64,000 nucleotides of DNA from a virus. Below the pieces are notes generated by a model. It was not told where the DNA came from and made no database searches. It saw only the letters and a list, made by a program, of their open reading frames with translations. The stretch lies in IMG/VR virus record IMGVR_UViG_3300002835_000025; one strand, given 5' to 3'. Both the position numbers and the translations under genes were made by a program. The stretch's first letter is position 1. Every line of letters begins with the position of its first letter. Positions 13,295-14,350 of this stretch are shown here, one piece after another.

Positions 13295-14039
13295 TTTAAT
13301 TATTATAGCTGCTGGAAACGGCAAAAGAATGGGAAACATTAATGTTCCAAAAGTATTATATCCAGTAAATGGAGTTCCTAATTTAAAAAGAATTATTACT
13401 AATGCTATAGAGTCCGAAGTATTTGACTCTATAGATTTAGTAATTAAAGATTCTGCAGTAAAAAGTTTTAAAGAATTTTTGGATAATAGTGAATTTGATA
13501 TTAAAATAAATCTAATTCCTATAAATTCGGGACTAGGAGATGGACATGCAATTCTTTCCATGTATAAGAATGCTCATCAATATAACAATTCTATATTGGT
13601 ATGGGGCGATGTTTATATTGATAGTCCAATGATATTCAAAGAATTGAAAGATGTTGGAAGTTCTACTGGTAATAACTTTTCAAGCGCAGTAATTCCGGTA
13701 TGTACTGAAAAGAATCCTTACGTTACTATATTGACTGATTCTAATATGAACGCATTATCAGCAGACTTCTCTAAACTTGGAGAAACTCATTTGGAAGGAT
13801 TCCACGATCAGTCTATATTCTATATCAATAACGATGTAATATATGATAGTCTTCAAAAAATGCATGAAGTGTTATGGAAAAATGGACAATACATTACTCA
13901 ATCAAAAGAATTAAATTTCTTACATATTCTTCATTATTTAAGAAATATTAATTACCCAGCAAATTGTTATATTACTGAGTACCCAACAAAGTCGTTTAAT
14001 AGTATTGAAGAATTGACAAAATTGGAAAATTCATTATGA
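13287..14039 (+). CDS. Sugar-phosphate nucleotidyltransferase (GlmU/MobA-like GT-A fold)
   Basis: IIIAAGNGKRM...PKVL, GLGDGHAI, VWGD. Confidence 0.85.
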   Translation: MINLIIIAAGNGKRMGNINVPKVLYPVNGVPNLKRIITNAIESEVFDSIDLVIKDSAVKSFKEFLDNSEFDIKINLIPINSGLGDGHAILSMYKNAHQYNNSILVWGDVYIDSPMIFKELKDVGSSTGNNFSSAVIPVCTEKNPYVTILTDSNMNALSADFSKLGETHLEGFHDQSIFYINNDVIYDSLQKMHEVLWKNGQYITQSKELNFLHILHYLRNINYPANCYITEYPTKSFNSIEELTKLENSL

Positions 14040-14350
14040 TAAAAACCGATAAAAAATATATCCTATTGGGATCATCGAGACTTAGAAATTTTAAACAAGT
14101 TAATGATTCTGCTTGGAGATTCTCTTGCAATTATTGTGGTGATTCTGTAAAGAATCCAAAGAAGACCCGCGGAAATATATACATGAAACACCACAAATTT
14201 CTTTATAAGTGTTTTAACTGCGGAATTTCTAAATCTATTTCTGAATTCATTAAAGATTTGGATTCTAATTTGCATACAAAATATGAAATGGAAAATTATA
14301 AAGAAGGATCCTCAATCTCACCAGATTTATCAATGTTCGGAGTAAAATGA
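14036..14350 (+). CDS. gp61 primase N-terminal zinc-binding domain only
   Basis: RFSCNYCGDS.K..KK.RG...YKCFNCG...FIK..D..L...Y..E as in T4 gp61; ends at 104 aa with no TOPRIM domain. Confidence 0.85.
   Translation: MIKTDKKYILLGSSRLRNFKQVNDSAWRFSCNYCGDSVKNPKKTRGNIYMKHHKFLYKCFNCGISKSISEFIKDLDSNLHTKYEMENYKEGSSISPDLSMFGVK

Follow-up and report, generated by a model that had tools for sequence, protein, structure and literature searches.

The 64,000-nucleotide (nt) stretch of viral DNA analyzed here (IMG/VR record IMGVR_UViG_3300002835_000025; hereafter, the window) carries, at positions 14036 to 14350, a gene for a 104-amino-acid (aa) protein that corresponds to the N-terminal zinc-binding domain (ZBD) of the phage T4 primase gp61. 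This is a known domain in a new, stand-alone form that is maintained by selection, and it is found alongside a non-homologous catalytic enzyme, a predicted primase of the archaeo-eukaryotic (AEP) type. Primer synthesis is most likely carried out by this AEP, whose gene lies at another place in the genome. On balance, the ZBD protein is probably a retained subunit of the primosome that docks on the helicase gp41 and holds the template and the 5' end of the primer, while the AEP catalyzes the reaction in trans.

The zinc-binding module and the missing catalytic half

The gene and the parts of its product are as follows.

14036..14350, + strand: gene of the stand-alone gp61-type ZBD protein (open reading frame [ORF] of 104 aa with an ATG start; T4 gp61 homology and fold match)
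14093..14236, + strand: zinc-ribbon core, residues 20-67 (T4 gp61 alignment and strands in the predicted model)
14126-14128, 14135-14137, 14210-14212, and 14219-14221, + strand: Cys31, Cys34, Cys59, and Cys62 (pairs C31-x2-C34 and C59-x2-C62)
14237..14311, + strand: helix-turn-helix, residues 68-92, which aligns with HIM1 of T4 gp61 (Ile74-Lys97)
14312..14347, + strand: C-terminal tail, residues 93-104, predicted to be disordered (pLDDT 60-65), with a conserved motif

A preliminary description of this DNA, made from the sequence alone, had recognized in this gene the zinc ribbon of the gp61 N terminus with all four Cys residues, and profile searches, the spacing of the Cys pairs, and the predicted fold all agree with that assignment. 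In a phmmer search against PDB chains, residues 9-92 of the ZBD protein aligned with residues 12-98 (8dvf_H numbering) of T4 gp61 (8gao_G and 8dvf_H, E 4e-8). The matches in PHROGs were confined to positions 132-221 of 461 in phrog_451 (2.4e-20) and positions 31-118 of 947 in phrog_47, “DNA primase” (1.6e-15), and the full-length marine gp61 P0005 reaches well beyond this share, covering positions 30-351 of phrog_47 and 132-460 of phrog_451. Similarly, a tblastn search of the window with the full-length gp61 of Methylophilales phage Melnitz returned a match restricted to residues 5-91. The closest sequence relatives of the ZBD are the full-length gp61 proteins of T4-like phages from marine and fresh waters, with 45-54% identity. 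The Pfam family PF01807 (Zn_ribbon_DnaG) matched the ZBD protein at 14.1 bits (E 0.043), below its curated cut-off of 24.9 bits; because the full-length P0005 also falls short (20 bits), this model is insensitive for this gp61 lineage. The ZBD protein belongs to the wider DnaG zinc-ribbon fold by its T4 gp61 homology and fold match and not by Pfam.

An AlphaFold model built from 67 sequences (pLDDT 89.5) consists of an N-terminal helix, the zinc-ribbon sheet, and helices 68-75 and 77-92, with the two helices equivalent to HIM1 predicted at pLDDT >90. The top Foldseek match of this model was gp61 in the structures of the T4 primosome (TMq 0.76-0.78, rmsd 2.1 Å over 93 columns). The ZBD of T4 gp61 comprises the zinc ribbon and HIM1 (Ile74-Lys97), which docks on an N-terminal hairpin dimer of gp41 and is followed by an 18-residue linker and the catalytic domain (PMC10359460). 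In the same structures, Arg51 contacts the 5'-triphosphate of the primer, and Tyr55 and Tyr66 stack on DNA bases (PMC10359460). In the ZBD protein, Arg45 aligns with Arg51 and is invariant in alignments of 9 and 15 sequences and conserved in at least 90% of the 67, and Tyr49 and Phe60 align with Tyr55 and Tyr66. The four Cys residues are invariant in all 67 sequences. In the HIM1 equivalent, D76, Y83, Y88, and K89 are invariant in an alignment of short and full-length relatives. According to the T4 alignment, the protein ends ∼12 residues into the gp61 linker, past the full HIM1; the HIM1 equivalent (helices 68-92) has been kept, and HIM2, the C-terminal helix of gp61, is missing along with the catalytic domain.

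The surroundings of the gene are the following.

13287..14039, + strand: upstream nucleotidyltransferase-like gene of a DNA-modification operon (weak IspD and NTP_transf_3 matches)
14351..14451, no strand: spacer of 101 nt between the ZBD gene and nrdB, too short for a catalytic domain
14452..15444, + strand: nrdB (Ribonuc_red_sm), the downstream neighbor kept in all relatives examined

The preliminary description had placed the gene at the usual pre-nrd position, with a stop at 104 aa and nrdB ∼100 nt further on, leaving no room for a TOPRIM domain. All of this holds: in Melnitz and in S-PRM1, a full-length gp61 is encoded directly 5' of nrd, in the same place as the ZBD gene, and the spacer measures 101 nt. 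The proposed coupling to the modification operon proved to be a local feature. In the window, the ATG of the ZBD gene overlaps the TGA of the upstream gene as ATGA, but in a related lineage with 63-64% identical ZBD proteins (loci L062 and L063), this overlap is absent and the upstream genes are different. A scan of the spacer for terminator-like sites found none. A sigma-70-like site at 14013-14040 (TTGACA, 16 nt, TATGAT; 11/12), with the -10 element overlapping the start codon of the ZBD gene, was rejected as being at chance level, as the region contains 8 such promoter-like sites versus 9.2 expected.

For the catalytic half, the search was extended to the rest of the genome, which was rebuilt from public contigs through exact-protein matches. 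Two JGI contigs contain segments that match the window at 100% identity, and two assemblies carry contigs of 142,949 and 142,963 nt, the lengths that a circular genome of 142,822 nt would give with end overlaps of 127 and 141 nt; such a genome is therefore probable. The searched DNA (the window plus L047, L053, L054, L055, L058, L057, and L049, all of them 100% identical where they overlap the window) amounts to ∼138.4 of 142.8 kb, or ∼97% of the genome. The rebuilt order is gp17, gp18, gp19, gp20, gp21, gp22, gp23, uvsY, uvsW, gp47, gp46, gp45, gp44, gp62, regA, gp43, uvsX, and gp41, followed by the window and then by the baseplate and fiber genes and a gene for a 3207-aa protein. Between the latter and gp17, there is a gap of ∼4.4 kb, of which ∼1 kb belongs to these two genes and ∼3.4 kb is unread. 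This gap corresponds approximately to positions 130,306-134,680 of JGI contig Ga0453115_0000030 (3300043775) and 364-4,739 of ENA contig k141_351631 (ERZ27271758).

When six-frame ORFs of the window and of the other loci (together ∼97% of the genome) were examined with phmmer and two profiles, a TOPRIM domain of the gp61 type was not found. The best match in this genome to the catalytic part of Melnitz gp61 was a 50-aa ORF on the opposite strand (phmmer E 0.056), and the best E values with TOPRIM profiles built from 5 and 62 sequences were 0.065 and 0.53, respectively. The 62-sequence profile recognized the control primases of Melnitz and S-PRM1 at 4e-93 and 6e-84, so the earlier suggestion that the catalytic core had been lost and the zinc module kept is upheld for this portion of the genome. 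The precomputed Pfam matches of the called genes outside the window include no Toprim family, which speaks only against a classical DnaG-type protein. With most of the linker, the N-lobe, TOPRIM, and HIM2 absent, the ZBD protein cannot be a primase on its own.

Pfam is a poor guide to gp61 in these phages. The full-length P0005 reaches no Pfam Toprim model, and, more generally, PF13155, PF13662, and PF01807 stay under threshold on full-length gp61 from T4-like phages of marine and freshwater origin. Since both the Toprim and the zinc-ribbon models miss their thresholds, Pfam-based annotation leaves marine-type gp61 primases unnamed, and the lack of a Toprim hit in Pfam means little in marine and freshwater T4-like phages. 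In Synechococcus virus S-PRM1 (MH629685), the region L002:3965-4978 is annotated as two hypothetical proteins. It is a single open frame of ∼338 aa that matches both the ZBD profile (2e-35) and the TOPRIM profile (6e-84), so this primase is intact and misannotated, not split.

The short form is neither recent nor an artifact. Public assemblies contain the exact ZBD protein in 41 index blocks, of which 13 include contigs of 50-200 kb, and relatives of 102-104 aa were found at 88, 86, 66, 63-64, and 48% identity, which excludes the one-off deletion or misassembly that could have undone the preliminary description. At the loci L060-L063, the short gene has its own stop codon and lies directly 5' of nrdB. 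When the window is compared with L061, dN/dS is 0.066 for the ZBD gene, 0.034 for nrdB, and 0.047 for nrdA. The remnant is a genuine gene that purifying selection maintains. In a tree of 67 ZBDs, the five short lineages form one clade (support 100/97) nested among full-length primases, a topology that fits a single old truncation. One further cluster, P0083, has a 103-aa protein and two members. Several other proteins of ∼100 aa (P0080, P0127, P0063, and P0153) were rejected as short forms and are probably fragments, as their contigs measure only 569-1420 nt or their cluster includes a protein of 334 aa. The phage itself is widespread in lake metagenomes.

The AEP and the role of the ZBD protein

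The two candidate partners of the ZBD protein are encoded on either side of its gene.

27488..28468, + strand: predicted stand-alone AEP-type primase (326 aa from ATG; 330 aa from TTG at 27476)
305..1672, + strand: gp41, DnaB-type replicative helicase (Pfam DnaB_C, 3.5e-19; called gene of 455 aa)

The AEP gene matches phrog_9765, “DNA primase” (1.5e-62), and its predicted model (pLDDT 78.9) has an AEP catalytic domain at approximately residues 1-200 followed by a helical bundle. Foldseek matched this model to RepB' (3h20) and the PrimPol of cyanophage S-2L (6zp9) with E values of 3-4e-4 and probabilities of 0.98-1.0; in VIA, the S-2L PrimPol (6zp9_B) aligned over 148 residues (Z 9.3, rmsd 3.6 Å), and further entries with the AEP fold included CAPP, RepB', Prim-PolC, LigD-pol, PriS, and MPXV E5. 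Residues D89, D91, and D163 do not vary among 20 relatives or among another 17 and, by analogy with the DxD motif and third Asp of this fold, are probably catalytic. A single Cys is invariant in the 20 relatives, so the AEP lacks a zinc finger of its own. At E ≤1e-10, the family numbers 3,105 proteins, on contigs of up to 327 kb; among the 120 listed, lengths are ∼295-342 aa and none has a name. One group of AEPs shows 58-65% identity. Automatic annotation likewise gives the ZBD and AEP genes as “hypothetical protein” or no name. The helicase shows 55-59% identity to gp41 of cyanophages and Melnitz and can be expected, by analogy with T4, to be the docking partner of the HIM1 motif.

The preliminary description had asked whether a short gp61 and the AEP co-occur in relatives. 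The longest contig of each cluster member was compared between the clusters of the short protein and those of the AEP, with the following results (identities are to the window proteins).

Short protein 86%, AEP 92%: longest contigs common to both, 143,704 and 33,678 nt
Short protein 66%, AEP 74%: longest contigs common to both, 148,053 and 17,990 nt
Short protein 63%, AEP 76%: longest contigs common to both, 78,181 and 48,673 nt (the contigs that underlie L062 and L063)
Short protein 48%, AEP 71%: longest contig common to both, 19,371 nt

The equal nucleotide sizes make it very likely that the short protein and the AEP are encoded on the same contigs in four other lineages, and the co-occurrence is thereby supported. 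An 11-residue insert of the AEP, GYKLKKGEFRAP, was considered as a candidate docking site and rejected, as it is not specific to the lineages found to carry the short protein.

Beyond these lineages, AEPs with 40-53% identity were found at 33 IMG/VR loci. In most of these marine relatives (L005-L037), as in the window at 27070-30138, the gene order is a MazG-like gene, the AEP, one or two ORFs, and a thymidylate-synthase-like hydroxymethylase. In about a third of the 33 loci, namely those that reach far enough, gp41 lies 6-10 kb downstream of the AEP; in the window, it lies 27 kb upstream, so the replication region has been rearranged there. In the complete 156-kb genome of C48C1 (OQ984149, Kyanoviridae), the AEP adjoins gp43 and is the sole primase candidate, which supports its role as the replicative primase of the wider group.

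The mechanism that would best account for these data is as follows. The catalytic part of gp61 (N-lobe, TOPRIM, and HIM2) would have been deleted once, in the ancestor of a clade of freshwater T4-like phages, leaving a gene for the zinc ribbon, HIM1, and a short tail. The 104-aa protein would still sit on the N-terminal collar of gp41 through HIM1, with its zinc ribbon touching both the single-stranded template as it emerges from the helicase and the nascent primer at its 5'-triphosphate end, while the unrelated AEP would supply catalysis in trans. The retained module may thus serve in start-site choice or in primer holding or hand-off without being needed for the chemistry. The ZBD and catalytic domains of gp61 are separately folded, are joined by a flexible linker, and already work in this way within one protein.

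Several points weigh against this mechanism. A gp61-like ORF within 10 kb of the AEP was found at 0 of the 33 IMG/VR loci, the five longest AEP contigs gave no match to Melnitz gp61 over their full length, and a gp61 profile run on four of these five gave none either. C48C1 has no gp61-like match either (Melnitz control, 5e-241); its search with Pfam Toprim_2 and Toprim_4 was also blank, but this result is uninformative, as the gp61-bearing Melnitz control was blank too. Because these AEP-bearing relatives carry no trace of gp61, the AEP is presumably able to prime without the ZBD protein and to serve a T4-type replisome on its own, so the idea, already present in the preliminary description, that the ZBD protein is the partner of the AEP is weakened. 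In T7, the primase ZBD by itself did not detectably bind the DNA that it recognizes (PMC2910064). In the ZBD protein, the DNA-stacking residues Trp53, His64, and His71 of T4 gp61 are replaced by Asn, Lys, and Ser, respectively; full-length marine gp61 sequences also differ from T4 at Trp53 and His64. In the 63-64% lineage, the ZBD protein has evolved faster than its neighbors (63-64% identity, versus 83-88% for nrdB and nrdA). Finally, ∼3.4 kb of the genome lies outside the searched DNA.

A more specific form of the retained-subunit proposal, in which the two proteins make up a two-subunit hybrid primase on gp41, with the DnaG-type ZBD picking the start site and holding the 5' end of the primer for the AEP, is possible but can be put forward only tentatively. 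On this hybrid-primase reading, the C-terminal tail offers a lead. It follows the motif [PI][DN]L[SE][MIL]FG in four lineages (SPDLSMFG, SPDLSIFG, QPDLSLFG, and INLEIFG) and reads NSLFKFYE in the most distant one. C-terminal peptides of the type found in T4 gp43 and gp55 bind the gp45 sliding clamp. The corresponding ends in this phage, STLDAFF in gp43 and STLDSLYGELV in gp55, bear a partial likeness to the tail (L-x-x-hydrophobic/aromatic near the C terminus), so the tail might recruit the clamp or the polymerase for primer hand-off.

The strongest competitor, although a rather unlikely one, is that the remnant has been kept for the helicase and not for priming: HIM1 on the gp41 hairpin dimers could stabilize or activate the closed ring or compete with other collar-binding proteins. 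HIM1 is indeed the best conserved helical part of the protein, the T4 ZBD docks gp41 at a site separate from that of the catalytic domain (PMC10359460), and priming chemistry appears independent of the ZBD protein, given that AEP-bearing relatives manage without it. However, conservation is just as strict at the zinc-binding Cys residues and at the primer- and DNA-contact positions Arg45, Tyr49, and Phe60 as in HIM1, and a pure clamp would need none of them.

It is improbable that the zinc ribbon has been exapted outside the replisome, either as a sequence-specific regulator of the nrd or modification operons or as a protein that recognizes modified DNA. The gene does sit between the DNA-modification operon and nrdB, is translationally coupled to the operon in this lineage, and evolves faster than the core genes. 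On the other hand, the coupling is not conserved, the helicase-docking motif is retained, and a Pfam search with the ZBD protein gave no match to any regulator family. The suggestion that the protein is a reader of modified DNA found no support.

A split DnaG-type primase, with its catalytic half encoded in the unread 3.4 kb, diverged too far, or supplied by the host DnaG, has very little to recommend it. About 3% of the genome was outside the searched DNA, and, as phrog_21887 is limited to the C-terminal half of gp61, there may be split versions in other places. Against this, 97% of the genome gave no match with controls at 1e-84 to 1e-93, and the Pfam matches outside the window contain no Toprim, which would have detected a classical DnaG-type protein. 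The unread gap lies between a neck-fiber gene and the large terminase gene gp17, a place where neck genes are expected. Hardly credible at all is the view that a recent deletion left behind a decaying gene without function: although the gene evolves faster than its neighbors and sister groups have lost gp61 wholly, this is contradicted by the dN/dS of 0.066, by the length of 102-104 aa with all Cys residues intact in five lineages down to 48% identity that form a single old clade, and by the absence of frameshifted or truncated copies among the relatives.

Other features of the genome

The operon at 9665-14039 upstream of the ZBD gene encodes a homologue of the T4 beta-glucosyltransferase, a methyltransferase, a CofD-like protein of 570 aa with a long C-terminal extension, and the nucleotidyltransferase-like protein, and the window also contains two thymidylate-synthase homologues (29470-30138 and 32548-33537). 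Together, these genes suggest a hypermodified base more elaborate than glucosyl-hmC.

Two core replication genes of this genome look interrupted. In the strain of the window, gp43 (L057:13545-17203) was called as two genes, an exonuclease part of 327 aa and a polymerase part of 559 aa, with an ORF of 286 aa between them in the reverse orientation, and uvsX (L057:17264-19552) is broken up by ∼1.2 kb of additional sequence. A strain with 98-99% identity (L050:6290-9931) has an intact gp43 of 827 aa and uvsX of 365 aa. Both interruptions look like mobile insertions of the homing endonuclease or intron type. The product of nrdA is 575 aa long in the window (15417-17144) and 901 aa long in relatives with 98.7% identity (loci compared, L041:11403-14108, L042:9451-12156, and L003:3166-4176); since the extra ∼1 kb carries intein-splicing and HNH matches, an nrdA intein is present in some strains and absent in others.

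Three copies of an element of 54-87 nt are found at 19379-19465, 19808-19894, and 20091-20177. They share 75-80% identity over 87 nt, with the first ∼54 nt nearly identical, and each contains TTGAAA...TATAAT and lies just 5' of a small ORF. From their sequence, these elements look like repeated early-promoter cassettes.

Comparison with known systems

Primases are of two unrelated kinds. In a 2016 survey of viruses with double-stranded DNA, a virus was found to have an AEP or else a DnaG homologue, one exception aside (PMC4889955). In the window, a replisome of the T4 type combines the catalytic enzyme of one kind with an accessory module of the other that stands alone and is under selection. 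A description of a stand-alone gp61 ZBD, or of a DnaG-type module combined with an AEP, was not found in the full-text literature searched, the coverage of which is incomplete.

The ZBD protein shares with T4 gp61 (8dvf and 8gao; PMC10359460) the N-terminal helix, the zinc ribbon, and HIM1, at 28-30% identity and in the presence of gp41, but it ends 12 residues after HIM1, and most of the linker, the N-lobe, TOPRIM, and HIM2 are gone. Its closest counterparts, the full-length gp61 proteins of Melnitz and the cyanomyophages (P0005-P0008), have the same gp61-nrd gene order; unlike the ZBD protein, they are 338-340 aa long, with an intact catalytic domain.

The ZBDs of DnaG and T7 gp4 (for T7, a primer hand-off structure cited in PMC10359460) resemble the ZBD protein in that they work on a catalytic domain without rigid attachment to it and hold the 5' end of the primer. 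DnaG ZBDs have been reported to act in trans on neighboring subunits (Corn et al. 2005, as cited in PMC2910064). However, the two domains of DnaG and T7 gp4 belong to the same primase family and are usually found in one polypeptide, whereas the presumed catalytic partner here is an unrelated AEP with its own gene at a distance of 13 kb.

In structure, the AEP is most similar to RepB' of plasmid RSF1010 and the PrimPol of cyanophage S-2L, which have only 9-13% sequence identity to it; the helical bundle is also found in RepB'. To our knowledge, neither of them works with a DnaG-type zinc-binding subunit.

The AEP-only T4-like phages (C48C1 and the 33 IMG/VR contigs) have a homologous stand-alone AEP, with 43-51% identity, and a T4-type replisome with gp41. 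In these phages, the replacement is complete and no gp61 remnant is left, whereas the clade of the window has kept the zinc-binding module and, judging from the sequences, appears to be an intermediate that retained the accessory part. It can thus be viewed as a non-orthologous replacement caught midway, whose start (full gp61) and end (AEP only) states are represented by sister groups. It is also a natural dissection of a primase, in which the role of the zinc-binding and helicase-docking module is separated from catalysis, and the ZBD protein and the AEP are both small and can be assayed together with gp41.

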